Shown piece after piece: positions 8,884-51,427 of a stretch of 64,000 nt of DNA. Position 1 is the stretch's first letter, and each line of letters opens with the position of its first letter. Origin of the DNA: Candidatus Fraserbacteria bacterium (lineage in GTDB: Bacteria; Bipolaricaulota; Bipolaricaulia; RBG-16-55-9); the NCBI GenBank assembly GCA_037443265.1, contig JBBIOR010000003.1, positions 18,192 to 82,191 on the forward strand, given 5' to 3'. The notes below the pieces were generated by a model. That model was not told the DNA's origin, ran no database searches, and worked only from the letters and a program-made list of their open reading frames with translations. Position numbers and translations under genes: made by a program.

Positions 8884-8903
8884 GAAGGGGCCCCGGCCCC
8901 TTC
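8884..8903 (-). terminator. GC-rich hairpin at the stop codon of the 118-aa ORF (no U-tract)
   Basis: GAAGGGG-CCCCGG-CCCCTTC is self-complementary (7-bp stem). No T-run follows on either strand, so it is only terminator-like. Confidence 0.3.
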
Positions 8904-9258
8904 ATTGGGTACCCTGAGCACTCTTGCCGTTGCCAAACAAGGCGTTCAAGAAGAAGATCAACCCCATCCCGATCGCCGTGCCCAGCACAATGCCCTCACC
9001 AAATCTCTCCTTGCCTGCAAACCGCTGCTGGGTGTACCCACAATGGATGCAGCGAAGGTACTCGTTCTCCTTCTCCGTCTTAAACGGCTCCAGTTTGGAT
9101 TTGCAGATGGGACAGCTCTGGGGCTCCAAGATCTCCGAAGGGATCTTATCAATGCCCTTCTTGATCAAGGCCAGCTCGACCTCTTTGGCGTTCTCATACA
9201 CCCAGAGCGGCACCTTGATCGTCTTGTAGGCCTCGACATCTTTTGCCATCGCGTTCAT
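8902..9258 (-). CDS. Small zinc-ribbon protein with a C-terminal transmembrane helix (function unknown)
   Basis: 118 aa. CPIC...CIHC pair, then GIVLGTAIGMGLIFFLNALF. It has its own consensus promoter. The region looks less GC-rich than its neighbours by eye. Confidence 0.5.
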   Translation of the reverse strand: MNAMAKDVEAYKTIKVPLWVYENAKEVELALIKKGIDKIPSEILEPQSCPICKSKLEPFKTEKENEYLRCIHCGYTQQRFAGKERFGEGIVLGTAIGMGLIFFLNALFGNGKSAQGTQ

Positions 9259-9379: not shown

Positions 9380-10864
9380 TTAGAAGCCCGCTTTCAGCTC
9401 TTGGAGGAAGCGTCGCACTTGACGGTGGTAGGAGTCGAAGGGATCATCGAAGATGAGGGAGCGCTTGGCCCCAACGGTGACCCCGTCCCACTCGATGAGA
9501 TAGTCGCTTATGGGCAGGGAGCGCAGCGCCTGGACGACTTGGGCGCGGGCCTGGCCTCGGGTCTCGGTGGGGCCCTCATGGAGGGCCTTTTCGATGTCGG
9601 AGTCCTCGATCAAGTGGCGGACCTCACCGGCCTCCGCTAGGGCATAGTAGAGGCCCTGGTCGGGATTGATGTTATGATACTCGAGATCCAGACTATGGAG
9701 CATGGGGTCATTCCAGTTGAGTCCTTCGGCTTGGCGATAGAGATCCAGCAGCCCTCTCTTGGCCACCCAATCCAGACGATCTACCAGGGTCATGGGGTTC
9801 CGCTCCAAGGCGTCGAGGGTGGCCTCCCACTCGTCTAGAATGAGATCCGTCTCCTCATCCCGGTCCCGGAAGCGTTGGGCGCTTTCCAGATAGTGCCGCT
9901 GGACGTCTACGGCTCGGATGGTCCGGCCGTCTTCTAATCGAACGATCCAGCGCCAGGTGGGATCGCGCGAGATCTCCTTGAGGGTAGGGATAGGCCTGGC
10001 CAATTCTAAATCTTGTGGGGAGGCGTGCTCTTCGATGGCGTCGAGCACGAGAGCCGTTGTGCCCACCTTCAGGAACGTGGCATACTCCGACATATTGGAC
10101 TCCCCAAAGAGGATGTGGAGACGCGGAGCGTGCGAGGTGTCCTGGAAGCTGTCCCACTTGGGGTTGATCAGCGCCCGGCTGAAGCGGACGCGCCCGGAGG
10201 CGACATAGAGAATATGATCTGCCCGCTGGGAGAGCTGAAAATCTACGGTAGGGTCAGGCTCCACGCCGTAGATCTGATCGGTGAAGGCGTAATCGACCCG
10301 ATGGCGGCTCAGAGCTCGGATCATGCGGCCGGGATCGCTGGTGAGTCGGTGTCCGCCTACCCGGCCTGCTCCGGCGAAGATCTGCCGCGTCACCAAGAAG
10401 GGAATAAGCGGGGCCAGATCCCTCCCATACGGGTGCGTTTCGGGATTGAGCGAGTAGTTCTCGTGGCACCCGAACGTATGGCCGCCGTAGTGATCGATGT
10501 TGTTGTTGTGGAAGCTGACCCGCTCTGTCCAATCTAGCTCTCGCAAGATTTGAAGGATGAGTCGCTGGCCCGCCTTCTCATAAGCCACTAGCTCCCGAAG
10601 GGAGCGGCACTCGGGGGTGGCATATTCTAAGTGGCTGCCGACCACGTCGATGTAGAGGCGGCCGCCGTTGATCAAAAAACCTCCGGCCTCGGCGGGCTCG
10701 AAGAAGGCGTCGCGCGCATGTCTATCTATTAAGCCCCAGCGACGGCCGCGGAACGCTTGCTCTTTGACGCGCTCGACGACCTCCTCAGGGTCGCAGAGCG
10801 CGGAGTCGCGCACCAGACAGCCGAACTCCGTCTCGATGCCGACAATTCTGTTCAACAGAGTCAT
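9380..10864 (-). CDS. pafA: Pup/UBact ligase family protein, PafA-like paralog (divergent)
   Basis: IVGIETEFG, GGRLYIDVVGSHLEYATPEC, FGCHENYS, FLVTRQIFAGAGRVG, LSQRADH. Last gene of the operon, as in actinobacterial loci. Confidence 0.8.
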   Translation of the reverse strand: MTLLNRIVGIETEFGCLVRDSALCDPEEVVERVKEQAFRGRRWGLIDRHARDAFFEPAEAGGFLINGGRLYIDVVGSHLEYATPECRSLRELVAYEKAGQRLILQILRELDWTERVSFHNNNIDHYGGHTFGCHENYSLNPETHPYGRDLAPLIPFLVTRQIFAGAGRVGGHRLTSDPGRMIRALSRHRVDYAFTDQIYGVEPDPTVDFQLSQRADHILYVASGRVRFSRALINPKWDSFQDTSHAPRLHILFGESNMSEYATFLKVGTTALVLDAIEEHASPQDLELARPIPTLKEISRDPTWRWIVRLEDGRTIRAVDVQRHYLESAQRFRDRDEETDLILDEWEATLDALERNPMTLVDRLDWVAKRGLLDLYRQAEGLNWNDPMLHSLDLEYHNINPDQGLYYALAEAGEVRHLIEDSDIEKALHEGPTETRGQARAQVVQALRSLPISDYLIEWDGVTVGAKRSLIFDDPFDSYHRQVRRFLQELKAGF

Positions 10865-10869
10865 CCTTC

Positions 10870-11631
10870 TTATAGGAGGAAAGGTTCGAGTTCCTCCTGG
10901 TTTAAGAGTCGAAGCCTCCGTTCTCGAGAAGGATCGCGCTCCAGCACCGCAGCTTCTATCTCCATGCCTTCCTTGAGCGACTCTGTGAGGATTTGCTGGA
11001 TCTGCTGGCGGGTCGGAAGCTTCTCTGCTCCCTCACCCTCCGCCTTAAGAGCCCACTGTCCGATGGCCCAGGCGGAGAGAGCCCTTTCGAGGCCCGCATC
11101 CAGCTTGATGGTCTTGCGCTTGGTCTCTAAAAAAGCGCGCTCCATCTGCCGCTCGGCGAATTCTGTGCCGGCGATGGCTGCCTGCTGGCGATGGAGCATG
11201 AATTCCCCATCATAGTTGAGCCTAAAGAACAGATCATCTTCCGGGCGATCGCCCACCTGAGCGAACAAGCCCTTCAGGACCAGGGGTGTGCGAAACGGAT
11301 CGGCAAACGAGCGCTTGAGCACCGGGCTGATGGCAAAGCTTAGGACCCGTTGAATGGAGACGTCCTCGGGGCTGCGCTGATACCCTTCGGCGTGGGCGAA
11401 GTCCACGGCCAGTTGCCGGACGGCTTCCAAATCCGAAGGATTTCCTAAGCCCGCGAAGGCCAAGCGATCGTAGATCTCGAAGATCTTGCGCTGGGTACGC
11501 CGTGTGCTGAGCAGCAGGACCCCCACATCGCAGCTGATCCCGACCACCGGGCTGCCTCCGCGGAGGCGATCTTCGACGTAGTCGGCTTTCTGTCGGAGTG
11601 TCTGCTGCCAGTCGTAGGGCGTGTAGGCCAT
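10870..11631 (-). CDS. prcA: 20S proteasome alpha subunit
   Basis: 253 aa. Ntn-hydrolase fold signature (GSPVVGISCDVGVLLLSTRR..., IFEIYDRLAFAGLGNPSD) without an N-terminal Thr nucleophile. Directly downstream of prcB. Confidence 0.82.
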   Translation of the reverse strand: MAYTPYDWQQTLRQKADYVEDRLRGGSPVVGISCDVGVLLLSTRRTQRKIFEIYDRLAFAGLGNPSDLEAVRQLAVDFAHAEGYQRSPEDVSIQRVLSFAISPVLKRSFADPFRTPLVLKGLFAQVGDRPEDDLFFRLNYDGEFMLHRQQAAIAGTEFAERQMERAFLETKRKTIKLDAGLERALSAWAIGQWALKAEGEGAEKLPTRQQIQQILTESLKEGMEIEAAVLERDPSRERRLRLLNQEELEPFLL

Positions 11632-11647
11632 ATTATATTATATTATA

Positions 11648-12445
11648 TTATTCTCGGCGGAGCTGGCGCTGGAGGCTCCGCAGCTTCTCTTCCGGGATGT
11701 CTATCACTCCTTGGGCGGTGATGGTCTTCGCCAGCGGGGGTGGCCCAATCAAGCCGGCCGTGGCCGGATCTAAGCTGGCCGCGATGTCCAGCAAGAGCAG
11801 CGATTCTTTGAGCACCTCCTCCAAAGGCATCTCATGGAAGGGCCCGCGGGTTCGGGCAATATACTCGAACGTGCCGCGGATCTTCTCCGCGCCCGAGCCG
11901 GCCGCTCCATATTCTCGGCTCTCGAAGCGCGCGCCCAGCATGTCATAGAAGAAGATTCGTCCCTGAGTGGCCGTGCGATCATAGGCGCTCACGATGGGCA
12001 AAAATCCCCCCAAGCCCTGCAGCGCGCCGGGGAGGCTCTGAGCCAGCACTCGAGAGACTTCCGCGAGCTTTCCCTCTAGGCTCATCTCCTGAAGCTGGCT
12101 GCGGGCGTAGTATTTGAACGAGTGCCTCAGGAAACGGGCCGCTTCCGCCGCTGGAGCGTAGGAGCCGGCTACGGCAATGAGTGTGTAATCATCCAGTTTG
12201 AGGATCTTCTCGGCCTCGTCGTAGAGGATGCCCCCCGCTGAGGTGGCCCGCCGATCGGCCACGTTGAGGACTCCCTCGCTGAATTTGAGCGCGATGACGG
12301 TGGTGCCCCAAGCGGCTGAGGCCCTTTCCGCTTCCTGCCCCCAGGCGAGGGTCTGTCTTGCCAGCGGCAGAGGAATCCCCGCGCGCTGGAGCAGACGCGA
12401 GAAATCCCCCCAAGTCCCATCGTGTTCCGGGCCCATGGGGTTCAC
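11648..12445 (-). CDS. prcB: 20S proteasome beta subunit with a 47-aa propeptide
   Basis: The ...AAWG|TTVIALKF junction gives Thr1 at residue 48. Asp17 (VADRR) and Lys33 (EAEKILK) are at the expected spacing. The GTG start overlaps the upstream stop (GTGA). Confidence 0.85.
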   Translation of the reverse strand: MNPMGPEHDGTWGDFSRLLQRAGIPLPLARQTLAWGQEAERASAAWGTTVIALKFSEGVLNVADRRATSAGGILYDEAEKILKLDDYTLIAVAGSYAPAAEAARFLRHSFKYYARSQLQEMSLEGKLAEVSRVLAQSLPGALQGLGGFLPIVSAYDRTATQGRIFFYDMLGARFESREYGAAGSGAEKIRGTFEYIARTRGPFHEMPLEEVLKESLLLLDIAASLDPATAGLIGPPPLAKTITAQGVIDIPEEKLRSLQRQLRRE

Positions 12446-12621
12446 TCTCCGCTGCGCTGGCGATAGCGACGGGCCTGTCTGGGGTCTACGCGCTTCATTC
12501 GCTCGAGCAGCTCGCGCGTGTTGGGCCTCTCCACCTCAGGCGCGCGCGGATGGCTCTCTTCGTCCTCATGGGGCTTCGTCCAGGGATCGTCCGTGACCGG
12601 CCGGGTCTTGCGCTCGGGCAT
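12442..12621 (-). CDS. Pup-like small protein modifier, UBact-type (59 aa)
   Basis: MPERKTRPVTDDPWTKPHEDEESHPRAPEVERPNTRELLERMKRVDPRQARRYRQRSGE. Low-complexity, charged, C-terminal Glu. GGAGGTGAACGG precedes the ATG at 12621. Sits between the dop-like gene and prcB. Confidence 0.68.
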   Translation of the reverse strand: MPERKTRPVTDDPWTKPHEDEESHPRAPEVERPNTRELLERMKRVDPRQARRYRQRSGE

Positions 12622-12626
12622 TCCGT

Positions 12627-14129
12627 TCACCTCCTCAGGCGTCGTTCGGAGTCTGCCACCCATTGTATCAAGTCTTCCAGCGTCGCATCATAGGGGACCT
12701 CGAGCGTTCCGCCCACGAGATTCTTCAGGTCGAGCTCTACAGTTCTGTTCCGGTGAGTCACCATCACTCGGCTCCAGCTGGCGGATCGCACCTCGAAGCG
12801 CTGCACGCACAGCCCGCGCAGGAAGGCTCGCGTATCCTGGGGTGCTCTTCGCATGGCCTCCTCGATCTCCGCCTCGTGAGTCCAGCGTCGCAGGGCTCCT
12901 GCTCTTTCCAGCGCCCGGGAGAGTCCACGCTCCGGATCGAGATTGTGATATTCCAGTTCGAGGCTGCATAAGAGATCGAGATCGCCCTTCACCGGGGCCC
13001 CTTCGCTCTCAATGAAAGATTCCAAAAGTTCGCGCTTGGCCACCCAGTCGAGGCGGTCCTTGAGCCGCCGCGGATCGGCCTCAAGATCATCCAGCACGCT
13101 CTCCCACTCGCGAAGCACCCAGTCTGTCTCCTCATCCCGACCGGCGAAGAGCTCTTGGGCCGCCCGTAGATAGGCCCGTTGGATGTCGATGGCCGGAATC
13201 GTCCTGCCAGAGATCTGTTCGACCAGCCAGTGTCGATCTTGATCGTGAGAGATCTGCTTTATCGCCCGCACCGGATCCTTGAGTTCGACGGGTGGGCCGT
13301 AACCGGCTTCGAGAGTGGCCAGCACCAGAGCGGTCGTGCCCATCTTGAGAGCCGTGGCATACTCGCTCAAATTCGCATCTCCACAGATGACGTGCAGGCG
13401 ACGCCACTTATGGCGATCCGCGTGGGGCTCATCGCGGGTGTTGATGAGCGGCCTGTGATGGAGCGTATCTATGCCCAAGATCTCATCGAAAAAGTCCGCG
13501 CGCTGTGAGAGCTGATAGATGACCCGCTCTCCCGCGGCTTGCGGGTCGGTGCCTACCTTGCCGGCTCCGGCATAGAGAATACGCGTGACGAGAAAGGGCA
13601 GAATCCCGTTCACCAACTGCTCCAGGGGAATCACGCGCGGCACCAGATAATTCTCATGGCAGCCGTAGCTCATGCCGTGGTAGTCCGTGTTATTTTTATA
13701 GACGGACACGGCCCGCCCCGTGCGCTGCTCATAGCGCTTGGCGCAGGCCCATACGATGCGCTCCCCGGCCCGATCCTGGGCGATGAGATCTTTCAAGCTG
13801 TGGCACTCCGGTGTGCTGTACTCTGGATGGCCGTGATCGTGATAGAGCCGAGCGCCGTTTGGGAGCACGCGATCCACGTGCTCTTCGTGAGCGGTGCGCG
13901 GCCTGGGAGCGTGAGAGATCCTTTCATAGCGATCGTCTTTGGGGTTGGTTCTTAGGCGAGGAGCGCGGAAGCCGCGCAGATCTTGCAAGGGGCTCTCGTC
14001 ACGATAGTCCCAGCGAGGCCCCGCCGGAAGAAAACTCACAAGCGCTCGGGCCTCCGAAGTGAGATCCCCTATATCCACGCCCTCGATATACAGGCCGTAT
14101 TCCGTCTCTAACCCGAGCAGGCGATCCAT
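12627..14129 (-). CDS. dop: Pup/UBact deamidase-depupylase family protein, Dop-like paralog
   Basis: LLGLETEYG, RWDYRDESPLQDLRGF plus a long loop before NGARLYHDHGHPEYSTPEC, YGCHENY, INTRDEPHAD, LHVICGDANLSE. Located immediately upstream of the modifier gene. Confidence 0.82.
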   Translation of the reverse strand: MDRLLGLETEYGLYIEGVDIGDLTSEARALVSFLPAGPRWDYRDESPLQDLRGFRAPRLRTNPKDDRYERISHAPRPRTAHEEHVDRVLPNGARLYHDHGHPEYSTPECHSLKDLIAQDRAGERIVWACAKRYEQRTGRAVSVYKNNTDYHGMSYGCHENYLVPRVIPLEQLVNGILPFLVTRILYAGAGKVGTDPQAAGERVIYQLSQRADFFDEILGIDTLHHRPLINTRDEPHADRHKWRRLHVICGDANLSEYATALKMGTTALVLATLEAGYGPPVELKDPVRAIKQISHDQDRHWLVEQISGRTIPAIDIQRAYLRAAQELFAGRDEETDWVLREWESVLDDLEADPRRLKDRLDWVAKRELLESFIESEGAPVKGDLDLLCSLELEYHNLDPERGLSRALERAGALRRWTHEAEIEEAMRRAPQDTRAFLRGLCVQRFEVRSASWSRVMVTHRNRTVELDLKNLVGGTLEVPYDATLEDLIQWVADSERRLRR

Positions 14130-14142
14130 GAGCGCAACGTCA

Positions 14143-15834
14143 TCATACCACGGAATCCGTGGAGAGTCTTCGGCTATCAGCCCGAATCGGACGGACCTCC
14201 ACGACTTCCTCTGGGTCGTAGTCGATGAGTTTCAGCCAGTCTTCCAGATAGTCCGTCTTGGGGAATATCTCATTTTCTTTATATTCGAGTCGGATCGCCT
14301 CTTTCAGGTCTTGGGGGCGGATGCCCTCGTGCTTGCTAGCCCGCTCGATGCTGCGCTGGATCGCGAAATCTTTGGCGCGCTCTACGGCGGACATGATGAG
14401 CGCGCCGCTCACCAGATCGCTCCAGTAGAGCGTCTCGCGTCGGCCACTCTTTAGCACCACTTCCAGAAACGCCGTCTCAGGGCCACGGCGGAAGAGGTAG
14501 TCTGCGGCCTGCTCCACCAGCTCGTCGCGGGAGGCCTTCACATCCCCATCGTGCTCCCTTATCCAGTCGGGATCGAGGGGGATACGCTCGTTCAGATAGA
14601 TTCTGAATATATCCGCCGAGGCCCGGCGATCCGGCCGGCCGATCTTCACTTTTCTATCGATGCGCTCCGGTCTTAAGATGGCCGGATCGATGTAATCCGG
14701 GCGGTTGGAGGTGAGCATGACGATGACGTTCTCCAGACCCACCAGGCCATCCATCTCCGCGGCGAACTGAGGCACAACCGTGTTGGCAATGTTGAGATAT
14801 CTTCCGCTGCTGCGCACGCGGAGCAAAGAGTCCGCTTCGTCGATGAACACAAACACGAGATGGCCCTCTTTGGCCCGCTCACGGGCCGCGGCGAAGATCT
14901 CGCGCACCATGCGCTCGGTCTCGCCCAGCCACATGTTCAACAATTGCGGCCCGTTGATGAACATGAAATACTCGCGCACATCTTTGCCGACGCGCTCCCT
15001 ATAGGCCTGCGTGAGATTATAGGCCGTGGCTTTGGCGATGAGCGTCTTGCCGCACCCCGGCGGTCCGTAAAGCAAGATACCCTTCAGCTGCTTCTTGTCA
15101 AATCTCTCATAGAGCTCGGGATAGAGCAGCGGCCGCTCGATCGTGTCCCGAATGAGCCGGATCGCTTCCTCCTGGCCGCCGATCTGGTCCCAAGCGATCT
15201 CCGGAATCTTCTCCAAATAATAGCCCCGCACTTCGGACTTTTGGAAGTGTTCGAGCGCCACGCGCAACGAGGGCTCCAGGCGGACCTCATCTCCGGGCTT
15301 GAGGGTGATCTTCTCCAGATCCGACGAGCGCAGGATGATCCGCCCCGCCAGATGCCCATCGCTCGAGACCCTCAGTCGCCCATCGGGCAGGATCTCTGAG
15401 ACTTTGACAATGGGACCCTCGGGGTGATAGCCCAGATCGCCAATGACCGTAAAAGCCTCATTGACCTTCACGCGGGTGCCGATCTTCAGAGCCTTGGGGT
15501 CGAGCTTGGGGTCCACGTTGCAGTAGTATTCCGCATCGCCTACGGCCAGATAGGCGATGCCCTCGGCTGGAGAGCCCAGATACGTGCCGATGCGGTTCGC
15601 CGGAGCAGTGAGTTTTCTATAGACCTCTTCAAATTGGGCGATGGCCTGTCGGGCCTCTTGTAGCTGCTGTTCATCGACCCCAAGCTGATAATCCAGAAGC
15701 TCTAGTAGCTCTAGGCGGGGATCGCTCTGGGACGTACGCGCGAGGATCTCAGCTAAGAGGGCGCGGGCCCGGATCTGGGTCTCGAATCTCTTCGGCTCAA
15801 ACGATCCCTCGTGGGGCTGCTTGCGCCCGGCCAT
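14143..15834 (-). CDS. mpa: Proteasome-associated AAA ATPase (Mpa/ARC family)
   Basis: Start moved to MAGRKQPHEG (GAGGTGAGACC-ATG). N-terminal coiled coil, OB-like region, Walker A GPPGCGKT, Walker B FVFIDEAD. First gene of the operon. Confidence 0.82.
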   Translation of the reverse strand: MAGRKQPHEGSFEPKRFETQIRARALLAEILARTSQSDPRLELLELLDYQLGVDEQQLQEARQAIAQFEEVYRKLTAPANRIGTYLGSPAEGIAYLAVGDAEYYCNVDPKLDPKALKIGTRVKVNEAFTVIGDLGYHPEGPIVKVSEILPDGRLRVSSDGHLAGRIILRSSDLEKITLKPGDEVRLEPSLRVALEHFQKSEVRGYYLEKIPEIAWDQIGGQEEAIRLIRDTIERPLLYPELYERFDKKQLKGILLYGPPGCGKTLIAKATAYNLTQAYRERVGKDVREYFMFINGPQLLNMWLGETERMVREIFAAARERAKEGHLVFVFIDEADSLLRVRSSGRYLNIANTVVPQFAAEMDGLVGLENVIVMLTSNRPDYIDPAILRPERIDRKVKIGRPDRRASADIFRIYLNERIPLDPDWIREHDGDVKASRDELVEQAADYLFRRGPETAFLEVVLKSGRRETLYWSDLVSGALIMSAVERAKDFAIQRSIERASKHEGIRPQDLKEAIRLEYKENEIFPKTDYLEDWLKLIDYDPEEVVEVRPIRADSRRLSTDSVV

Positions 15835-17243: not shown

Positions 17244-17319
<76 letters not shown>

Positions 17320-18116: not shown

Positions 18117-18869
18117 GTGATGTCCCGTAGGGCATTCTGGGTCATTGGGGGAATGATCTGCTTCGGGCTCTTTAAGGGTCTGGCAGCCGAAGAGCCTCCG
18201 CTCCCCCAGCCGATAGGGGAGCTCAACGACTACGCGGGCATCCTGGGACAAGAGAGCCGCCAGCAACTCCAACGCAGCATCGATGAGCTGAAGACCCAAG
18301 GCGTGAAGGTGTTTTTGCTGATCACTCTTCTTGATCCCTTCAGCGATCCTGCGCAGCTGGCAGAGAGGATCTGGCAGGCGTGGAAGCTTGCGCCTGAGCG
18401 AACGATCCTCATCGTGTTCGTGAGGGAGGCAGACCAGTGGGCTCTCTGGTGGAAGCTCACGCCGGATCTGGCCTCACAGTTGGACTACTCCTCCACTGGG
18501 GAGTATCGGAGCTCTCTGGAGCGGCTCCTCAAAGAGCGGCGGGTGGGACAGGCTGTTGTGCATTCCATTGAGTCGCTGCGAGGGTGGTTTGCCCCTCCCA
18601 AAGCGTCTGAGGAACTTCCGCCCAGAGCGGGTCCTTCTGCGGGCTCTCCGCTCTTCTGGTACCTGCTGGCAGGAGCAGGCGGAGTGGGGATGATTGCAGG
18701 CTTGATCTGGTTCGCTCTCGTCTGGCTCTGCCCCGAGTGCGGGGGGAGGCTGAGCCGGCGTTCTGCCTGGGCTTTCGGGCCCGGCCGTTGGGCTCGTAGC
18801 CGGAGGCGCGAGCGGGTATACTATTGTGCGCGATGTGGGTATCTCCGCATCCGACGGGGAGAGAGGTAG
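18117..18869 (+). CDS. TPM-domain (YgcG-like) membrane protein with a C-terminal zinc ribbon
   Basis: Signal/TM, LNDYAGILGQESRQQLQRSIDELKTQGVKVFLLI (TPM signature), a TM, then CPECGG...YYCARCGY. Confidence 0.65.
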   Translation: MMSRRAFWVIGGMICFGLFKGLAAEEPPLPQPIGELNDYAGILGQESRQQLQRSIDELKTQGVKVFLLITLLDPFSDPAQLAERIWQAWKLAPERTILIVFVREADQWALWWKLTPDLASQLDYSSTGEYRSSLERLLKERRVGQAVVHSIESLRGWFAPPKASEELPPRAGPSAGSPLFWYLLAGAGGVGMIAGLIWFALVWLCPECGGRLSRRSAWAFGPGRWARSRRRERVYYCARCGYLRIRRGER

Positions 18870-19215
18870 AGGGCCGCGGAAGCGTCAAAGCTTCTGAGGA
18901 AAGTCCGGGCTCCACAGGGCAGGCCGCTCGGTGAGAAGCCGAGAGGGAGCGATCCCTGGGTAAGGCCACAGAGACCAGACCGCCGACGTGTACTTCAGCC
19001 GACAGGCCCGAAGCGCACAGGCAAGGGTGAAAGGGTGGGGTAAGAGCCCACCGCCGGTCCTCGCGAGAGGGCCGTGGCTGGCAGCCCCCCGGCCGGAGCA
19101 AGGCCAAATAGGCAGGCGCTTGAGGGTGGCCCGCCCGAGCCTGTGGGTAGGCCGCTCAGATAGATGGCCCTCGCCCTTCATCAGGGAACAGAACCCGGCT
19201 TACGCCTCTCTCCCC
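18856..19215 (+). ncRNA. rnpB: RNase P RNA, bacterial type A
   Basis: GAGGAAAGTCCGGGCTCCACAGGGCAG, AGGGTGAAAGGGTGGGGTAAGAGCCCACC, GCAAGGCCAAATAGG and ACAGAACCCGGCTTA. P1 pairs GGGGAGAGAGG (18856-66) with CCTCTCTCCCC (19205-15). Confidence 0.9.
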
Positions 19216-19381
19216 GGCTTTGCTTTTCTGCCTGACAGCAACGCTTGGGTGCTCTTTGGGTCTTCGGTCCTCCGGAGCCCTGACTCCCATGCTGTGGCTC
19301 CTTGGCCCCTGCCTGCCGCGTCCCGACGAGCATCCTAGCACAAAGCGACGGAGGGGACAAATGCCCTCTCTTAAGTTCGGC

Positions 19382-19409: not shown

Positions 19410-19774
19410 AGCCTTGCGTTCTTTGACAATTGGGGGTGAATGGATTCGACGGGGATGCCGAAGGGCAGGCCGCAGGTGGAGTTGGCCGCTCACTCCTTAA
19501 TCAGGCGGCAAAGCACGATAAGTGCCAACGAATTTGCTTACGCTGCTCCTTCGCTAAACTAACGAAGGAGCCGTTCGCTTGAGCTTCCGCCTGCAGGGCT
19601 CAGGACGAACGTCGATGATGCGGGCTGGCTCTACTCTGCGCCCTCCGGAGTGGAGTGACACCTAGAGGGCTCGGACGCCCAGATCCTGTCTCGTGGGAGC
19701 TTAGCGTCTCAAAACAGAGCACGAGACTATGCCTGTAGAAGCCGATCGGAGGCATCTCCGGACGCGGGTTCGAT

Positions 19775-20350
19775 CAACTGCGTTATGGCAGTAAGGGTCG
19801 TCAAGGCGTTATCTCAAGCTGAGGCAGCCTATTTAGCTGGGCTTGTGGACGGCGAAGGTACTATCACCTTGACCCACATACATAAAGGAGCTAATAGGCA
19901 GCTGTCGGTTTCCATAGCCAACGCACAAGCTCTAGAGCTACTTCAGCAAATCGCGCCGTACCTCCGAACCTACAAGAGGTTACGCGCTGAGCTGGTGATA
20001 GAAAGATACAAAGCCTTGACGCCTAGAAACGGCAAATACTCCCCCGAGCTTCTGGCTGAACGGGAGAGATTCATAGCAGCTGTCCTTGCCATAACTCCGA
20101 AGGTCGCCCTGGGCAGTAATGCTCAGGTGAACACGGGGCTCACATCGGCGAAACCTGCTTGCCCACAAGGCAATGGCAACGCCGAGGGGTCGGAAGAGGG
20201 CTAACCTCAGGCCGGCCCTGTAGAGACTTATAGGCCCGCCGAAGCTCAAGCTGGGTGGGTACTAGGAGCACGTCAACGTGCTAAGACGCCCCGCATCCCA
20301 GGAGGGATGAAGGCATAGTCCAGCCCAGTCCGAAAGGATTGGAACCGCTG
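19775..20350 (+). mobile_element. Group I intron (IC3-like core) inserted in the tmRNA T-loop
   Basis: Preceded by U, ends in G. P4 CGGCG/CGCCG (20146-50 / 20180-84); P7 GACU(U)AU/AUAGUC (20225-31 / 20315-20); P8 hairpin 20267-82; P9 hairpin with GAAA loop 20325-42. Carries a LAGLIDADG ORF. Confidence 0.75.
19785..20204 (+). CDS. Single-motif LAGLIDADG homing endonuclease-like protein (short, possibly degenerate)
   Basis: 139 aa with AAYLAGLVDGEGTITL. The C-terminal ~30 codons (low complexity) overlap the ribozyme core. Confidence 0.72.
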   Translation: MAVRVVKALSQAEAAYLAGLVDGEGTITLTHIHKGANRQLSVSIANAQALELLQQIAPYLRTYKRLRAELVIERYKALTPRNGKYSPELLAERERFIAAVLAITPKVALGSNAQVNTGLTSAKPACPQGNGNAEGSEEG

Positions 20351-44929: not shown

Positions 44930-46660
44930 TCAGTGCTTGACCACGCAGAAGTCGAGCCCGCGAATCTCCAGCGGACGGCTGTTGTCGGGCGAGTGCACGA
45001 TCATCCGGCCCTTCTCAAAGTATGGCAATGCTTTTTGATAGTGCTTAGGGGCTCCGGCCCGCTCGGCCATCCCCTGCTCCATGCCCAAGAGAACCCTGGT
45101 GCTGATCTGCGAGAGCACCGCTTCATTGACATCTTGAGGGTTCTGGGTGATGAGCACAAGCCCTAATCTATTCTTGCGCCCCTGCTTGGCGGCTGTGACA
45201 AACTTTTCGACGATGAGGCGATCCTGCTGCGTCTTTTCTTGAGTGAGATAGCTATGGGCCTCGTCCACGGCTAATATGACGGGGTATTTTGCGAGGCGCC
45301 GGCCCCAAGGGGTCTCGATGGCTTTCGTCTTGGCATCGGCGATCATCGACATGACGGTGAGCACCACCACGCGCTCGCCCTCCGCACTCAAGTGATTGGT
45401 GGGAAAGACGCTCACTCGATCTTCATCGAAGATGCTCTCATAAAGTTGCGTAATGGGGTTAGCGCCCTGGTCGAAGATGTGGGCAAATTGGGGGAGAAGC
45501 ACCCGGCGGCGGATGGCTCCTAGCGTGGCCTCGTGAATGAAGCCGCTCTCCAGATAGGGCCGCATGCGCCCGTCGTCTTCGAGGAAGCGCTTGAAGGCCT
45601 TATAGCTCTTCTCTGTAGAGTCTCTAAAGAAATCTCGGATGAGCCGCTCCAGAGCTGCGTATTGGGCCTCGTTGAGTTCTCCTCCGGCGATGAGATACGG
45701 GAAGTCCCTCACAAGCTCAAAGGGAATGGTAAAGTCTGTGTGGGCATCGCAGCCGTGATAAGAACAGCCGGCTTCGACGGCCGAAAAGACCGTGAGCTTC
45801 TTGCCTACACCTCCTAGTTTGCCGCCGACACCCACGAGATTGTTCAACTCCTCTTTGGGGACGCTGGCGATGTGGGGATTATCATCGCGCAGGCCCCAAT
45901 ATTCGTTCTCCGGATCTATGATCACTATACAGGGCTTGCGGCGTTCTCCGCCTCGGCGCTCTAGAGTGTACTCTGAGTCCACGATCTGCCTCAGGAAATT
46001 CTTTGCGGTGTGGGTCTTGCCTCGCCCGCTCATGCCCGCGATCAGCACGTGCGTGAAGATGAGCGGATCGCCCGTCTTCTCAGCAGAATTTATCAGATAG
46101 TACGGGATCTTGAAGCCGCCCCTAAGCGTGATGGGCTCGCCGTTTACGGCCACATAGCCCAGGAAGAGTCCGTCTTCAGGCAGATCCAGTCCCAGCACGA
46201 CCTCCTCTTTGCTGGTCACGCGGCGCACGATGGCATTAGGCTTTGGCAGATAGCGCACTTCCGTGGCTCTTCCGGTGGGACTGATCATAGAGAGGGGCTC
46301 CAGCTGGGCCAGTTGGATGTATTCTCCTTCGCCCACTTCGTCGGCGCTGATGAGCACGTGGACTTCACTCATGTCATCAAGGGCATCGCGCTTGCGATAC
46401 GAGAGTTTTTTGATATACGCGAAGAATTTTTCGTCGCGGTAGCCTAAGGGGATGACGACATACTGGCCGACGGCGATGTCATTACGCTTCTCTTCGGGGA
46501 TGTAGACTTCAACACAGTGCTCTGTAGTGCTGATGAAGAGCTCTTCGGAGATGGCCACGCGTCCGATCTCCTCGGGCTTGAGCGGCTTAACTTCCGGCTG
46601 TGAGGAGATCCGTAGCTGCTGCAACGCTCGTTCCAGATCAAATTCTTCAGATTTTGTCAT
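44930..46660 (-). CDS. herA: HerA-like FtsK/HerA-superfamily hexameric ATPase/helicase
   Basis: 576 aa. N-terminal barrel-like region, Walker A IAGMSGRGKTHT, Walker B VILAVDEAHSY, LITQNPQDV. Confidence 0.78.
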   Translation of the reverse strand: MTKSEEFDLERALQQLRISSQPEVKPLKPEEIGRVAISEELFISTTEHCVEVYIPEEKRNDIAVGQYVVIPLGYRDEKFFAYIKKLSYRKRDALDDMSEVHVLISADEVGEGEYIQLAQLEPLSMISPTGRATEVRYLPKPNAIVRRVTSKEEVVLGLDLPEDGLFLGYVAVNGEPITLRGGFKIPYYLINSAEKTGDPLIFTHVLIAGMSGRGKTHTAKNFLRQIVDSEYTLERRGGERRKPCIVIIDPENEYWGLRDDNPHIASVPKEELNNLVGVGGKLGGVGKKLTVFSAVEAGCSYHGCDAHTDFTIPFELVRDFPYLIAGGELNEAQYAALERLIRDFFRDSTEKSYKAFKRFLEDDGRMRPYLESGFIHEATLGAIRRRVLLPQFAHIFDQGANPITQLYESIFDEDRVSVFPTNHLSAEGERVVVLTVMSMIADAKTKAIETPWGRRLAKYPVILAVDEAHSYLTQEKTQQDRLIVEKFVTAAKQGRKNRLGLVLITQNPQDVNEAVLSQISTRVLLGMEQGMAERAGAPKHYQKALPYFEKGRMIVHSPDNSRPLEIRGLDFCVVKH

Positions 46661-46674
46661 CGCGTCTCCACAAG

Positions 46675-47931
46675 CTAAATCAGCTCTCCCCGGCTCTGAT
46701 TATAACTCAAATCGAGTTCGAGGCCGCAGGCGCGGATCAAGCTCAGGCTCTCCTCGTCTGTGATGCGCGCCCGGCTGTCCGCCTTGCGAATCGCCGGGGG
46801 AACCCCCTTGCCCCGCGCGATCTCTGAAAGGATCTTCGCGCGCAACTGCTCTGGGTCATGCCTCTCAAAGATGATTCGCGGTGCCTCTATCTTCAAGACC
46901 GCCTTCACCCGCGGATCATAAACATAAAAGAAACAGACATGATAAGCCCGAGCAGCAAGCTTTAGATCAAATGACTTTAAGCGCTTGAAGATGTCAAAGC
47001 CGACAGGGGCTTCCCCTTGCCGCTCGGGGAGCGAGTACTCCTGCTGGACGAACCAGTTGGTAAATCCCAGCGCATCTTTAGGAGTATCGCTCAAGACGGC
47101 TTTTATGAATTGCGCGTCGCTCGACCAGTTCTGAGAGGCGCGATCTAGCGTGAACTCAATGAGCCACGACGTTCCAGGGTTCTTGTTGAGGCTCACGAGC
47201 GCAAGTCCACGTTGCGCAAACTCCTCCACGACTCGGAGGGGCTGGGCTAGGATCTCGATGGCCGGTGGCCACTCCGTCCAGCGCGTCTCAGAGCTCCAAA
47301 GAGAATCGGCCTCATCGCCGGCAAAATAGTAATAAAGCCCGATGGGATAGAGATTCCCGTCCAAGATGAAGAGCCCTTGCGAGGGCTGGAGCTCTCCCAG
47401 CATGCGCAGGGCGTGATAGGACTCGGCAGCCCAGCGGGCCAGACCCGTGATGACCCGCTCGACCTCATGTTCCAGATAGCGCCGCAAGATGTGAATCCGC
47501 CAGAAATGTATGTACTCATCCCGCGATTGCTCCGATCGGGCTCCTCCCAGATCCGTCCTTTGCGAATGGGAGACCAGCGAGAGCGAGCGAAAGGCTTCCA
47601 AGGGCAGCTCTTTGAAGCGCACCTCAGGGTCGCTGGCAAGCAGGGCCTGATAGGCACAGAGCACGGTGCCGTTCTCGAGATATTTCAGCCGTGTGCTTCC
47701 GCCGTCGAGAGCGTACACCGGCTCGTAGTGGTTCAGCTTGCGTGCGGCCAGCTCTAAGAGGCTCTCGTGGCGATGTTCTAATGGAGTCAGGGCTTCGATG
47801 GCTCCGCTAAGTTGGAGCTCTTCGAAGAGCCGGCGGGCTTCCTCGCGATGATCGGGGCTCAGACGCCAGACCTGTTCGCCGAAGAACTTCAGCTGAGCGC
47901 GTAGCGTTTGCTTGGCCTCATTTGAGAGCAT
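46675..47931 (-). CDS. nurA: NurA-like 5'-3' nuclease
   Basis: 418 aa. VYALDGGST and LFILDGNLYP acidic motifs typical of NurA (RNase H-like fold). Sits between rad50 and herA. Confidence 0.68.
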   Translation of the reverse strand: MLSNEAKQTLRAQLKFFGEQVWRLSPDHREEARRLFEELQLSGAIEALTPLEHRHESLLELAARKLNHYEPVYALDGGSTRLKYLENGTVLCAYQALLASDPEVRFKELPLEAFRSLSLVSHSQRTDLGGARSEQSRDEYIHFWRIHILRRYLEHEVERVITGLARWAAESYHALRMLGELQPSQGLFILDGNLYPIGLYYYFAGDEADSLWSSETRWTEWPPAIEILAQPLRVVEEFAQRGLALVSLNKNPGTSWLIEFTLDRASQNWSSDAQFIKAVLSDTPKDALGFTNWFVQQEYSLPERQGEAPVGFDIFKRLKSFDLKLAARAYHVCFFYVYDPRVKAVLKIEAPRIIFERHDPEQLRAKILSEIARGKGVPPAIRKADSRARITDEESLSLIRACGLELDLSYNQSRGELI

Positions 47932-47932
47932 C

Positions 47933-50341
47933 TCATCTCACTCGATAGACCCGACTCGTGTTGTCGGCTGTCTTCTCCGTGCGATATTCATGATCCGCCC
48001 CTTCCACAAGTCCCACTTCATGGGAGACGACGATCACTTGGCCGATGCGCCTGCCAAGCTCTTCGAGTAGAAATTGCAGGCGATTCACCCGGTCGCGATC
48101 CAGATAGATCGTGGGCTCATCGAGGATGAGTGGCATACGACTTGCCGCCTGCGAGAGCACTTGGTGGATCGCGGAGCGGAGCGCGATGTTGATGAGCGCC
48201 CGCTCGCCGCCGGAAAGCAATTCCGGACGGATCGTACTGCCGTTTTTGAGTTCCACGAAGATCTCGTAGTCCTCCGTAATGCGCACCCCGCGATAGCTGG
48301 CTCCAGAGTCCATGAGCCCAAAGAGCTGATTGAAATATAGTTCAATGGCCCTGATGTTCCGCTTGCGCAAGTCCTTCTTGATCGTCTCGTAAAACTCGCG
48401 AAGCTGCTCTAATTCTGCTTGGAGCTGTTCGATCTTTTTGAGTTCCTCCTCCGTCTCGGCTTGCGCCTGTTGGAATCTCTTCAGTTGTTCGAGTTGCTCC
48501 TCAATCCGACCGCGCTCTGAAAGCAGGCTTTCCCGTTCCCTTTCCCGTTCTCCCTTTTGAGCCAGAAGCTGCTGTAGGATCTCTTGCACCTGCTGTGATC
48601 TCTCTTGAAGCTGCGGAGCATCGCCTAGCCTCTGCTCTAGTTCGGCGATCTTGGCCTTGAGGCGGGCGATCTCATCCCGAAGCGCTTCCATGTCCTCCAC
48701 GATCGACTTCCGTCCGCTTCTCTTCTCCAGCCCCTGCTCTTTGATTTGAAGGAGCCTTAGGGCTTGTTCTTTGAGTTCTTCGAGCTTGTGGCGTCGGGCT
48801 TCGAGGGCCTTAAATTCATCATCCAGCTTCTGGATGGATCTCTCTCCCTCCTGCTTGAGCGTATGGATTTGAGCCTCCAAGGCCTCCAGCCTCGCGCGCC
48901 CAGTTTTGATCTCTAAGGCCAGCTTCTGGATGGCCATCTCTTTTTCTTTGAGAGTCGGCCGGAAGGTCTCTGCACGCACGGGCTGTTGGCAGAGGGGGCA
49001 TCTGCCCTGCTGGGCGAGAGAGCACATCTCCTCCAGCTCGCGTCGGAGATTCTGCTCTTGCGCCTCTGCCTGCACGATGTTCTTGAGAAGCGATTCTCGC
49101 TCTGTGGCCAGCTTTTCGAGTTGTTGAGTGATTTGAGTCTGTCGCTCTTGGATCTGAATATATAGAGCCTCTTGCCGGCTCTTCGTCTGAGAGAGCTCTT
49201 GCGGGAGAACTTCGATCTCCTCCCAGCGGCCCGCGTCGTTGAATGAGCGAGTGATTTGCTCTTTGGGCAGGTTCAGTTGGGTCAATCCCTTGCCCAGTTG
49301 AGTTTCGAGCTGCTTGTAGCGCTGCTTGAGAGCTTCTAGTTCAGCACCCAGTTGCTGCTCCCTGGTCTCGTGTTGCTTGAGCTGTTTCTCCTTTTGAGAG
49401 AGCTCTCTTTGGCGTTCTTCGACCTCGCGGGTGAGTTCTTCCAGGCGCTGGAGCCTCTCGCGCAAGCCGTGCTGTAATCTCTCAGCCTCGGAGATCTTCT
49501 TTTCGAGATTCTTTAATTCTGACTGTTTTTCTTGGATCTTTTCTTCAATCTCCAGGCGTCGTTTGTCGAGATTCTCAGCTTGGAGAACCTCAATCGCTCG
49601 CTTGAGATCCTGATAGCGGTGGCTGAGCCCATCGAATCGGCGATTGAGGGCCCGTCGGGCCCCTTCGCGTGCGCGTTGGGCATAGCGATCGAGCTTCTCT
49701 AATCTCAATAAGCGATCGATCATCCGCCGGCGCTCTTCTTCTCCAGCACGAATCAAACGATCGATTTCGCCCTGGCGCACGTAGAGGCAATTCGTAAAGT
49801 CATCGCGGTTCATGCCGAAGAGCTCTTCGACGGCAGAAGCGGCGTTCTCGACCCCGACCCATTCAGTCCCATCATCCCGCAGCAAGCGACAGTCTTCCCT
49901 TTCGCTCACGACAGAATCACCGCGGCAACGCAGGGCCATCTGAGCTGTGTACTGATTTGAGCCGTAGCGGAACTTCAGCTGGACGGAGCCCGCCTCGGCC
50001 CCGAGGCGCAAGATGTCGGCCAGCGAGCGATCCATGGCTGGGCCAGCCTTGCTGCCGTACAGAGCGAAAAAGATGCTCTCCAGGAGCGAAGATTTCCCGC
50101 TGCCGTTGGGGCCGGCAATCACCGTGATGCCGTCATCGAACGCGATCTCAGCCTGCTCGTAGCACCAAAGATTCTTGATCTCGAGAGAGTCCAGCCGCAT
50201 GGCTGGAGCTTGAGAGGCGGGCGGAGCAAGTCTCTTCTTTAGAGGCCGGCTTAGGCGTGGAAGGTCTCGCTCCTCTCCCTCCACGTCTCTCTCGGCTTGG
50301 GTGAATAAATCGAGCAGGCTCGGTTCCTTCTTCTTGGGCAT
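47933..50341 (-). CDS. rad50: Rad50/SbcC-family SMC-like ATPase with a zinc hook
   Basis: Walker A GPNGSGKSS, very long coiled coil, CPLC hook (48989-49000), signature LSGGE, Walker B LILDEP. The start is uncertain (TTG at 50383, ATG at 50341 or 50200). Confidence 0.8.
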   Translation of the reverse strand: MPKKKEPSLLDLFTQAERDVEGEERDLPRLSRPLKKRLAPPASQAPAMRLDSLEIKNLWCYEQAEIAFDDGITVIAGPNGSGKSSLLESIFFALYGSKAGPAMDRSLADILRLGAEAGSVQLKFRYGSNQYTAQMALRCRGDSVVSEREDCRLLRDDGTEWVGVENAASAVEELFGMNRDDFTNCLYVRQGEIDRLIRAGEEERRRMIDRLLRLEKLDRYAQRAREGARRALNRRFDGLSHRYQDLKRAIEVLQAENLDKRRLEIEEKIQEKQSELKNLEKKISEAERLQHGLRERLQRLEELTREVEERQRELSQKEKQLKQHETREQQLGAELEALKQRYKQLETQLGKGLTQLNLPKEQITRSFNDAGRWEEIEVLPQELSQTKSRQEALYIQIQERQTQITQQLEKLATERESLLKNIVQAEAQEQNLRRELEEMCSLAQQGRCPLCQQPVRAETFRPTLKEKEMAIQKLALEIKTGRARLEALEAQIHTLKQEGERSIQKLDDEFKALEARRHKLEELKEQALRLLQIKEQGLEKRSGRKSIVEDMEALRDEIARLKAKIAELEQRLGDAPQLQERSQQVQEILQQLLAQKGERERERESLLSERGRIEEQLEQLKRFQQAQAETEEELKKIEQLQAELEQLREFYETIKKDLRKRNIRAIELYFNQLFGLMDSGASYRGVRITEDYEIFVELKNGSTIRPELLSGGERALINIALRSAIHQVLSQAASRMPLILDEPTIYLDRDRVNRLQFLLEELGRRIGQVIVVSHEVGLVEGADHEYRTEKTADNTSRVYRVR

Positions 50342-50395
50342 GATCTCTAAGAGGAGTATAGTGGAACGAGCCGGGGAGGGCAATTGAATTTTGAA

Positions 50396-51427
50396 TTAAG
50401 GCTTAGCTTCCAGCAAGCGCGTCACGAAAGCATCCACGTTGGAGTCGGCGATCTTCGGATCACGAATGATCGCATCGATCTCCAGAAGCGTCTTTGAGCA
50501 GTTCCTCTGGGCCAGCCGCTCGGAGATGAGCGCATCCAGGTTTCCAAATTCGAGCTGTACGTCAATTCGCTGCTCCTCTTGTGCCTCTCGGCGGTCGATG
50601 AGGCGCACGGCCAGCGCTCCTCGCGAGCGCGCGTGCTCCTCAATCTCTGGGATGCTCAGCCCATCGCGCCCCAGATACACGCAGACGACAGCCCCCTTTA
50701 GCTGCTCGCGATGCGCGTCAATACTCCTGATCGGATCTTCATCTGCGCTGATGTAGAGAAACTTTCTGGTGGGAAGCTCACGGCGATCTAGGCGACCCGT
50801 CTCAAGATCGATCAGGCTCACGCCCCGCGGCTCGCGCTCATCGAGATTCCAGCGCTCCGTGCTCCCCGGATACGTGACGAGCAGCTCTCCCTCGCGCCAG
50901 AGCTGATGCTCGTGATAATCCCCCAAGAGCACATACTGTGCCCCACTCTTCCGTAGATCTTCAAAGCGGAGTTCGCCGTTCCCCACACGATCGAGCAGCT
51001 GGTGGCAGACGAGCACTCCCCCCTTAAGGCGAGGAGGCTTCACTACGCGGCGGCCTGCATAGTCCATCCCATAGAAGCGAATGCCTCCCAGCTCATAGGG
51101 CTCTTGATGGAGGTGCACGGCCAGTCCCAGCTGCGCAAAGAGATCGAGCCATTGGACACCGCGGCGCTGCTCGTGATTGCCTACAACGCCTAGAAACGGA
51201 ATCCTGGCCTCTTTCAGCTGGAAGAGCACCTGAAGGGTATCGTGCAGATCTTCGGCCGTGGGGAAGCGATCATCGAAGAGATCTCCGGAGTGCACCACGG
51301 CATCGACTCTTTCGGCCAGCGCGATCTCCATGGCCCCTCGAAAGGCCCGCGCAAAATCTGTGCGGCGCTCTTCGAGCCCGTACTGGCAGGCCCCAAGGTG
51401 CGTGTCCGCCGTATGGAGAACCCTCAT
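50396..51427 (-). CDS. mre11: Mre11/SbcD-family nuclease (calcineurin-like phosphoesterase)
   Basis: MRVLHTADTHLG, HSGDLFD, VVGNHE, and GDYHE motifs. 343 aa. The ATG overlaps the upstream stop (ATGA). Confidence 0.82.
   Translation of the reverse strand: MRVLHTADTHLGACQYGLEERRTDFARAFRGAMEIALAERVDAVVHSGDLFDDRFPTAEDLHDTLQVLFQLKEARIPFLGVVGNHEQRRGVQWLDLFAQLGLAVHLHQEPYELGGIRFYGMDYAGRRVVKPPRLKGGVLVCHQLLDRVGNGELRFEDLRKSGAQYVLLGDYHEHQLWREGELLVTYPGSTERWNLDEREPRGVSLIDLETGRLDRRELPTRKFLYISADEDPIRSIDAHREQLKGAVVCVYLGRDGLSIPEIEEHARSRGALAVRLIDRREAQEEQRIDVQLEFGNLDALISERLAQRNCSKTLLEIDAIIRDPKIADSNVDAFVTRLLEAKP

Follow-up and report, generated by a model that had tools for sequence, protein, structure and literature searches.

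We analysed a window of 64,000 nucleotides (nt) from a Candidatus Fraserbacteria bacterium (assembly GCA_037443265.1, contig JBBIOR010000003.1; all positions below refer to this window), in which an intact locus of the UBact family combines a small protein tag with a 20S proteasome. Six co-directional open reading frames (ORFs) on the minus strand fill positions 9380-15834. In 5' to 3' gene order, with lengths in amino acids (aa), they are as follows:

14143-15834, minus strand: Mpa/ARC-like proteasomal AAA ATPase, 563 aa from an ATG that was also chosen as start by the gene callers
12627-14129, minus strand: Dop-like enzyme, 500 aa (PF03136, 518.1 bits)
12442-12621, minus strand: UBact modifier, 59 aa, ending RYRQRSGE (PF20513, NF033388)
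11648-12436, minus strand: 20S proteasome beta subunit PrcB, 262 aa from ATG (PF00227, 73.3 bits)
10870-11631, minus strand: 20S proteasome alpha subunit PrcA, 253 aa (PF00227, 24.9 bits)
9380-10864, minus strand: PafA-like enzyme, 494 aa, predicted UBact-protein ligase (PF03136, 425.9 bits)

The ORF coordinates, the narrow gaps and the Pfam assignments confirm the six closely packed genes, and the products named for them, that had been proposed at the same positions in an earlier reading of the letters and translations (hereafter the sequence-only reading). The intergenic gaps in 5' to 3' gene order measure 13, 5, 5, 16 and 5 nt. The third of these, between the tag and PrcB, becomes -4 nt if PrcB begins at an alternative GTG (12445), which would give a protein of 265 aa; the ATG at 12436 is the start selected by the gene callers on the public assembly. 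All six products matched curated Pfam or NCBIfam models. According to our analysis, this is a chromosomally encoded operon whose products form a UBact tagging and degradation pathway that very probably works like the actinobacterial Pup-proteasome system. Gene content, family membership, catalytic residues, a gene order kept across phyla and selection on the tag were all observed directly, and they are described first.

The 59-aa ORF is a real gene. Its product matched the Pfam family PF20513 ('Prokaryotic ubiquitin-like protein UBact') with 71.5 bits (cut-off 27.8) and the NCBIfam equivalog model NF033388 ('ubiquitin-like protein UBact') with 80.2 bits (cut-off 35), in agreement with the UBact-type assignment of the sequence-only reading. 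The gene has a Shine-Dalgarno sequence (GGAGG at 12634-12630), which lies 8 nt ahead of the ATG and overlaps the Dop stop codon, and the tag ends RYRQRSGE directly before its own stop codon. For comparison, 80 related loci were collected from contigs of one genome per species with the Dop-like protein as query, and their genes were found by BLASTP (1e-5). A homologous small ORF lies immediately 3' of the Dop gene in 74 of the 80 loci, so that related genomes do keep the ORF in this place, a point on which the sequence-only reading could have been refuted; the six loci where UBact did not follow Dop are contig ends or were matched via the other PF03136 paralog. Over the last 33 codons, the tag gene and its counterpart in a Fraserbacteria locus (L003) differ by 18 synonymous and 2 non-synonymous codons, with 18 of the 21 base changes at third positions. 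The tag gene is thus under clear purifying selection.

The C-terminal half of the related tags is near-invariant (...LLKRMKRVDPxQARRYRQR[ST]G[EQ]), and Y53, R54, Q55, R56 and G58 did not vary at all in an alignment of 24 relatives. The terminal residue of the 74 related UBact proteins is Glu in 45 and Gln in 29, the same alternation as in Pup. The tag is highly charged, and disorder is predicted from its composition. Neither its sequence nor the 24-sequence profile matched any PDB entry, Pup chains included, even at E<=10. A phmmer search of 1.84 billion cluster representatives returned 119 UBact-like clusters, all but about 16 of which align through to the last residue, as is expected of a tag that is joined via its C-terminus. 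C-terminally extended UBact-like proteins were considered as possible precursors and rejected, as they resemble stop-codon read-through (GQW..., GQY...) or fusions to PrcB by frameshift; the 13 extended or otherwise exceptional clusters that were read look like artefacts of read-through, frameshifts or truncation. In P0143, P0156, P0190, P0216 and P0221, for example, the 'UBact' runs past ...RTGQ (GQW, GQY, GQS) or is fused to PrcB. The locus is intact and ordinary for this catalogued family.

The second and sixth genes encode two paralogs that both cover PF03136 at full length (profile positions 1-440 of 441), and a family search of the six proteins, as suggested with the sequence-only reading, returned these matches along with those to the proteasome family. 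The Dop-like protein scored 429.7 bits with TIGR03688 (Dop) versus 363.6 with TIGR03686 (PafA). It aligns end to end with the Dop of Acidothermus (4b0r), Dop-loop included (residues 40-96), carries the Dop-type DHGHPEYSTPE and keeps the catalytic Asp98 (LYHDHGHPEY) as well as the Arg of NTRDEPH and the His of RLHV, which correspond to D94, R227 and H241 of the Acidothermus enzyme. The PafA-like protein matched TIGR03686 (PafA) end to end with 321.1 bits, versus 303.5 bits for the Dop model in two pieces. It has no Dop-loop, with 52 aa between ETEF and GGRLYID versus about 80 aa (ETEY to GxRxYxD) in the Dop-like group, and presence or absence of this loop splits the two paralogs cleanly in all related loci. 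From its N-terminus onwards it aligns with PafA of Corynebacterium glutamicum, with an insertion at the catalytic Asp (IDVVGSHLEYATPE versus LDVGSHPEYATAE); its DVVGSH around Asp73 (IDVVGSHLEY) aligns with the DVGSH of C. glutamicum PafA (LDVGSHPEY). ETEF, Asp73, CHENY and RLH of the active site are intact. The positions and features used here to tell Dop from PafA are those of PMC7947786. Since the sixth gene lacks the Dop-loop, carries the PafA-type insertion and follows prcA, it is the predicted ligase and the second gene the predicted tag remover, an assignment that draws on motifs, hidden Markov model (HMM) scores and gene position.

The proteasome subunits retain the catalytic and activator-pocket residues of their relatives. 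Following the cleavage site between G and T, PrcB reads TTVIALKFSEGVLNVAD(17)RRATSAGGILYDEAEK(33), and its Thr1, Asp17 and Lys33 align residue for residue with PrcB of Rhodococcus and Mycobacterium tuberculosis. The catalytic triad noted in the sequence-only reading is thus intact, and its 47-aa propeptide holds for the GTG start; from the ATG the propeptide measures 44 aa. PrcA is barely over the PF00227 cut-off of 22.4 bits, and it aligns with PrcA of the same two species. Its Lys49 (RKIFEIYDR) occupies the position of the activator-pocket lysine (HKVSELYDR), which in the alpha ring is thought to form salt bridges with the C-terminal motifs of activators (PMC12288473). The ATPase combines a helical region at its N-terminus with two OB domains plus an AAA module (PF17758, PF16450 and PF00004) and contains Walker A (GPPGCGKT), Walker B (FIDEAD) and the pore loop W-L-G. 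It matched the M. tuberculosis Mpa structures 5kwa and 7px9 with 343 bits over 445-496 residues.

The arrangement is shared widely. The order Mpa-Dop-UBact-PrcB-PrcA-PafA was found in 38 of the 80 loci and in at least six phylum-level groups, among them Fraserbacteria, Bipolaricaulia, Armatimonadota, Nitrospira and Latescibacterota. It is the order of M. tuberculosis, and the likeness to the actinobacterial mpa-dop-pup-prcB-prcA-pafA arrangement that the sequence-only reading had pointed out is correct. In 18 loci among L057-L080, mostly from Fimbriimonadia/Armatimonadota, only Dop, UBact and PrcB were detected, although many of these loci have flanks that reach up to 8 kb; the genes for PrcA, the PafA-like enzyme and the ATPase either lie elsewhere or are too divergent for detection. 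One contig labelled as a Methanoregulaceae archaeon (L058, JADZEW010000030.1) likewise holds Dop, UBact and PrcB, with layout and tag as in a Fimbriimonadaceae locus (L057), and is probably a mis-binned bacterial contig.

By homology with the Pup pathway, we posit the following course of events. The 59-aa UBact, which is predicted to be disordered and is encoded with its terminal Glu, would be ready for ligation, so that deamidation beforehand would be unnecessary. The PafA-like enzyme would use ATP to phosphorylate the gamma-carboxylate of this Glu and then move the tag onto the epsilon-amine of a lysine in the target, forming an isopeptide bond. A hexameric ring of the Mpa-like ATPase may bind the tag, probably through its N-terminal helices, and thread tag and substrate via the OB rings and the W-L-G pore loops into a 20S particle built of PrcA and PrcB, where Thr1 of processed PrcB would cut the substrate. 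The Dop-like enzyme is expected to reverse the tagging. The Gln-ended tags of some relatives imply, again by homology, that the Dop-like enzyme can also act as a deamidase, and in those organisms it would deamidate the tag first.

Several observations speak against a pathway of this kind. The five non-tag proteins have their best NCBIfam matches in the actinobacterial equivalog models (pup_AAA, Dop, 20S beta, 20S alpha and PafA), yet none of them reaches the cut-off of its model. The ATPase reached 443.6 bits with TIGR03689 (cut-off 504.75), PrcB 109.5 bits with TIGR03690 (191.9) and PrcA 74.8 bits with TIGR03691 (139.05); the Dop-like enzyme has TIGR03688 as its best model yet stays under the cut-off of 492.3, and the PafA-like enzyme stays under the 551.3 of TIGR03686. 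These five proteins are hence relatives of the mycobacterial proteins that fall short of the NCBI equivalog thresholds. In addition, the PafA-like protein scored 262 bits against solved Dop structures and 214 against solved PafA, which over the whole protein puts it as near to Dop as to PafA. Its NTRDEPH motif is changed to NPKWDS, with Lys replacing the highly conserved phosphate-binding Arg that is present in C. glutamicum PafA (in Dop, R227 holds the catalytic phosphate; PMC8599861), and about 27 aa are inserted after GAGRVG; change and insertion both lie within residues 171-237. The NPKW-type motif is common to the Fraserbacteria, Bipolaricaulia, Armatimonadota and 'Thermosaccharophagus' loci, whereas the ligase paralogs of Nitrospira, Latescibacterota and Leptospirillum retain NTRDEP. 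The ATPase, for its part, ends in ...STDSVV (14143-14160) and lacks the GQYL motif with its penultimate Tyr, which mycobacterial Mpa requires for docking to the 20S particle (PMC12288473, PMC8755798). A penultimate Tyr occurs in none of the 43 complete C-termini of UBact-linked ATPases (loci L003-L075, the window counted); their last two residues are aliphatic ([IV][IV]) in all but one, a Leptospirillum protein (QIE).

The tag also shows no significant sequence similarity to Pup. The Pup model PF05639 did not match it at E<=10; M. tuberculosis Pup, run as a control, scored 79.7 bits with this model. An hhalign comparison of the UBact profile with one Pup sequence brought the LL..helix into register along with the terminal G[EQ]; its probability of 0.8% is not significant, however, and we do not claim homology from it. 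Given the lack of significant similarity, how ATPase and ligase recognize Pup is not transferable to UBact residue by residue. The net charge of the last 27 residues is +5 in the tag versus -7 in Pup. An acidic N-terminal helix of the ATPase as a counterpart to the basic UBact was considered and rejected as a general rule: the helix has a charge of -5 in the window and is acidic in most close relatives, whereas that of Nitrospira is neutral to positive. Lastly, no UBact conjugate, activity or complex was found in the literature searched. The sequence differences weaken the notion that these proteins are equivalogs of the mycobacterial ones; the notion that they work like that system is weakened much less.

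The strongest alternative is that the tagging is real yet mechanistically divergent, either through a non-canonical coupling to the 20S particle (different or weak docking, or an adaptor) or through an altered chemistry or role of the PafA-like enzyme (transfer, regulation). The ATPase C-termini argue for it, as GQYL is required in mycobacteria, and so do the NPKWDS change with its insertion in the ligase paralog of Fraserbacteria, Bipolaricaulia and Armatimonadota and the fact that every equivalog cut-off was missed. On the other hand, the substituting Lys keeps the positive charge among otherwise intact active-site motifs, PrcA retains the activator-pocket lysine, proteasome and tagging genes remain tightly linked from one phylum to the next, and Nitrospira-type systems have NTRDEP with the same UBact. 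We consider such a divergence unlikely. Similarly, there is only a small chance that the UBact branch to which the window belongs (Fraserbacteria, Bipolaricaulia and Armatimonadota) differs from Pup systems in two steps, namely ligation, with its altered motif and insertion, and docking of the ATPase; if it does, the aliphatic ATPase end in this branch would imply an undescribed mode of docking on the 20S particle.

We also weighed whether the locus could be a canonical actinobacterial Pup locus, present on an actinobacterial contig, by recent horizontal transfer or as a binning contaminant, with the ORF being an ordinary Pup. The gene order is identical to that of Actinobacteria, and the pathway has been argued to have arisen there and then spread horizontally (Hecht et al., 2020; PMC7947786). 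However, the PF05639 result speaks against an ordinary Pup, and all six proteins have their nearest relatives in Fraserbacteria (66-83% identity), followed by Bipolaricaulia and Armatimonadota. The Dop-like protein, for instance, is 68-69% identical to those of two Candidatus Fraserbacteria metagenome-assembled genomes, 57-63% to those of Bipolaricaulia/Acetothermia, about 54% to those of Armatimonadota and about 52% to those of Nitrospira, and the tag is 78-82% identical to Fraserbacteria UBact. An identical Dop-like protein is encoded on contig CAZXMQ010000002.1 of assembly GCA_964641905.1 and in the Logan assembly of SRR11582147. Both flanks, more than 20 kb of housekeeping genes, run collinear with contigs of Candidatus Fraserbacteria, with amino-acid identities of 57-85%; the syntenic genes include secD, secF, holA, a 118-aa zinc-ribbon membrane protein, an S8 peptidase, a CT398-like coiled-coil protein, a TPM-domain protein and RNase P RNA. 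Guanine-cytosine content is 0.56-0.65 throughout the window, with no step at the locus. From relatives, collinear flanks and even base composition it follows that the host is a relative of Candidatus Fraseribacteriota and not an actinobacterium, in line with the lack of an obvious actinobacterial context noted in the sequence-only reading, and that the operon is resident in its chromosome. An actinobacterial origin of this kind is refuted for practical purposes. The idea that the 59-aa ORF arose by chance in a spacer, leaving only a proteasome and two PF03136 enzymes, could appeal to its short length, its low complexity and the lack of structural or experimental data on it, and is refuted just as firmly by the curated HMM matches, the Shine-Dalgarno sequence, the position kept in 74 of the 80 loci and the 18:2 ratio of synonymous to non-synonymous differences.

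As a discovery the locus carries little weight. The modifier family was named UBact by Lehmann, Udasin, Livneh and Ciechanover in 2017 (BBRC 483:946, pmid 28087277). Fraserbacteria and Acetothermia were reportedly already among the carriers listed at that time. The novelty implied by the sequence-only reading is therefore overstated: curated Pfam and NCBIfam models exist, annotation pipelines call the gene automatically, and precomputed Pfam matches on the public assembly already label this very tag gene as UBact. Proteasome and Pup-like loci outside Actinobacteria had been reported in 2007 (Leptospirillum) and, from a wider range of lineages, in 2008 (PMC2588565). Family, operon layout and spread over several non-actinobacterial phyla are thus already known. 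That conjugation by UBact has not been characterized biochemically, as the sequence-only reading stated, agrees with our search, in which we found no biochemical or structural study of any UBact system; the library searched is incomplete, and this is absence of evidence only, not proof. A term scan of a recent minireview of bacterial proteasomes (PMC12288473) for UBact-bearing lineages gave no match. The locus has modest value as an experimental candidate, being compact and apparently intact, with a Glu-ended tag and hence no deamidation step. Reconstitution could show how a basic tag stands in for the acidic Pup, whether a ligase whose phosphate-binding Arg is exchanged for Lys remains functional, and how an ATPase that lacks GQYL engages the 20S particle. 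A specialist might find only the ATPase C-terminus and the Arg-to-Lys change in the ligase surprising.

A promoter and terminator scan found no operon boundary upstream of the ATPase gene, and its sole strong promoter match, a perfect sigma-70 consensus beyond the stop codon of the pafA-like gene, was assigned to the gene that follows. That gene and its promoter-like site are located as follows:

9352-9324, minus strand: perfect TTGACA-17-TATAAT, within the 121-nt gap preceding the zinc-ribbon gene
8902-9258, minus strand: 118-aa protein immediately downstream of the pafA-like gene, with a zinc ribbon (CPIC...CIHC) and a C-terminal hydrophobic segment

The 118-aa protein had no Pfam match. Its counterparts on the two Fraserbacteria contigs show 81-85% identity, a stronger conservation than that of Dop, and none was found in other lineages. 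Given the perfect promoter-like site in the gap, its gene is probably transcribed separately from the operon. A scan of 35 further predicted proteins of the window detected no PAC2, PafBC or Bpa-like genes.

The remainder of the window carries ordinary housekeeping genes, which encode PNPase, three aminoacyl-tRNA synthetases, glycolysis enzymes and sugar transporters, and the window start cuts the gene of a ClpB/ClpC-like ATPase. Further RNA genes and a cluster of four adjacent genes (44930-51427, minus strand) that resembles the archaeal type of DNA end-resection systems were also noted:

17244-17319, minus strand: tRNA-Ala(GGC)
18858-19217, plus strand: RNase P RNA class A
19439-19776, plus strand: transfer-messenger RNA (Rfam, 131.7 bits; ARAGORN did not report one)
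44930-46660, minus strand: HerA (PF01935)
46675-47931, minus strand: NurA (PF09376)
47933-50383, minus strand: Rad50/SbcC-like ATPase, 816 aa
50396-51427, minus strand: Mre11/SbcD-like phosphoesterase

Among the known systems, Candidatus Fraserbacteria bacterium RBG_16_55_9 has the nearest locus (MFGX01000092.1, L004), with the same six genes in the same order between the same flanks. Its UBact is 82% identical to ours, with the last 22 residues unchanged (LLERMKRVDPRQARRYRQRSGE), and identities of the other proteins are 82% (ATPase), 69% (Dop-like), 75% (PrcB), 75% (PrcA) and 78% (PafA-like). There is no difference of kind between the two; the window comes from the same lineage but from another species-level genome. 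Its place in the UBact family is in the NPKWDS branch, whereas the branch of Nitrospira, Latescibacterota and Leptospirillum keeps NTRDEP.

The relation to Pup depends on where the family is delimited. Modifiers of 50-90 aa with a C-terminal G[EQ], encoded beside PafA-family and proteasome genes, were described by Iyer et al. (2008; PMC2588565), who used iterative profile searches and classed those of nitrospirae, verrucomicrobia and planctomycetes as Pup orthologs. Our tag shares with them the G[EQ] end and the PafA-family and proteasome neighbourhood, and the Leptospirillum and Nitrospira loci in our set carry UBact-type tags. While Iyer et al. (2008) treated such tags as Pup orthologs, Pfam and NCBIfam now model UBact separately. 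The claim of the sequence-only reading that the modifier is not Pup stands insofar as the Pup family model is not matched and the SGE end departs from GG[EQ]; it does not stand as a sharp distinction, since tags with the looser G[EQ] signature, which SGE does carry, had already been counted as Pup orthologs. 'Not Pup' is therefore a question of family boundaries.

Compared with the actinobacterial Pup-proteasome system, as represented by Mpa-Dop-Pup-PrcB-PrcA-PafA of M. tuberculosis, the window differs in a number of points. Its host is a candidate-phylum bacterium and not an actinobacterium. Pup ends in GGE or GGQ and has an acidic C-terminal half, whereas the window tag ends in SGE and is basic in this half. 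Mycobacterial Mpa carries GQYL and the window ATPase does not, and the window ligase has Lys for Arg227 and about 27 extra aa, unlike its mycobacterial counterpart. Shared, on the other hand, are gene order, enzyme superfamilies and catalytic residues, together with a short tag between dop and prcB that is predicted to be disordered and ends in G[EQ]. A C-terminal half with two helices is predicted for Pup and UBact alike, and in both systems the Dop-loop is found only in Dop and the DVGSH insertion only in the ligase.

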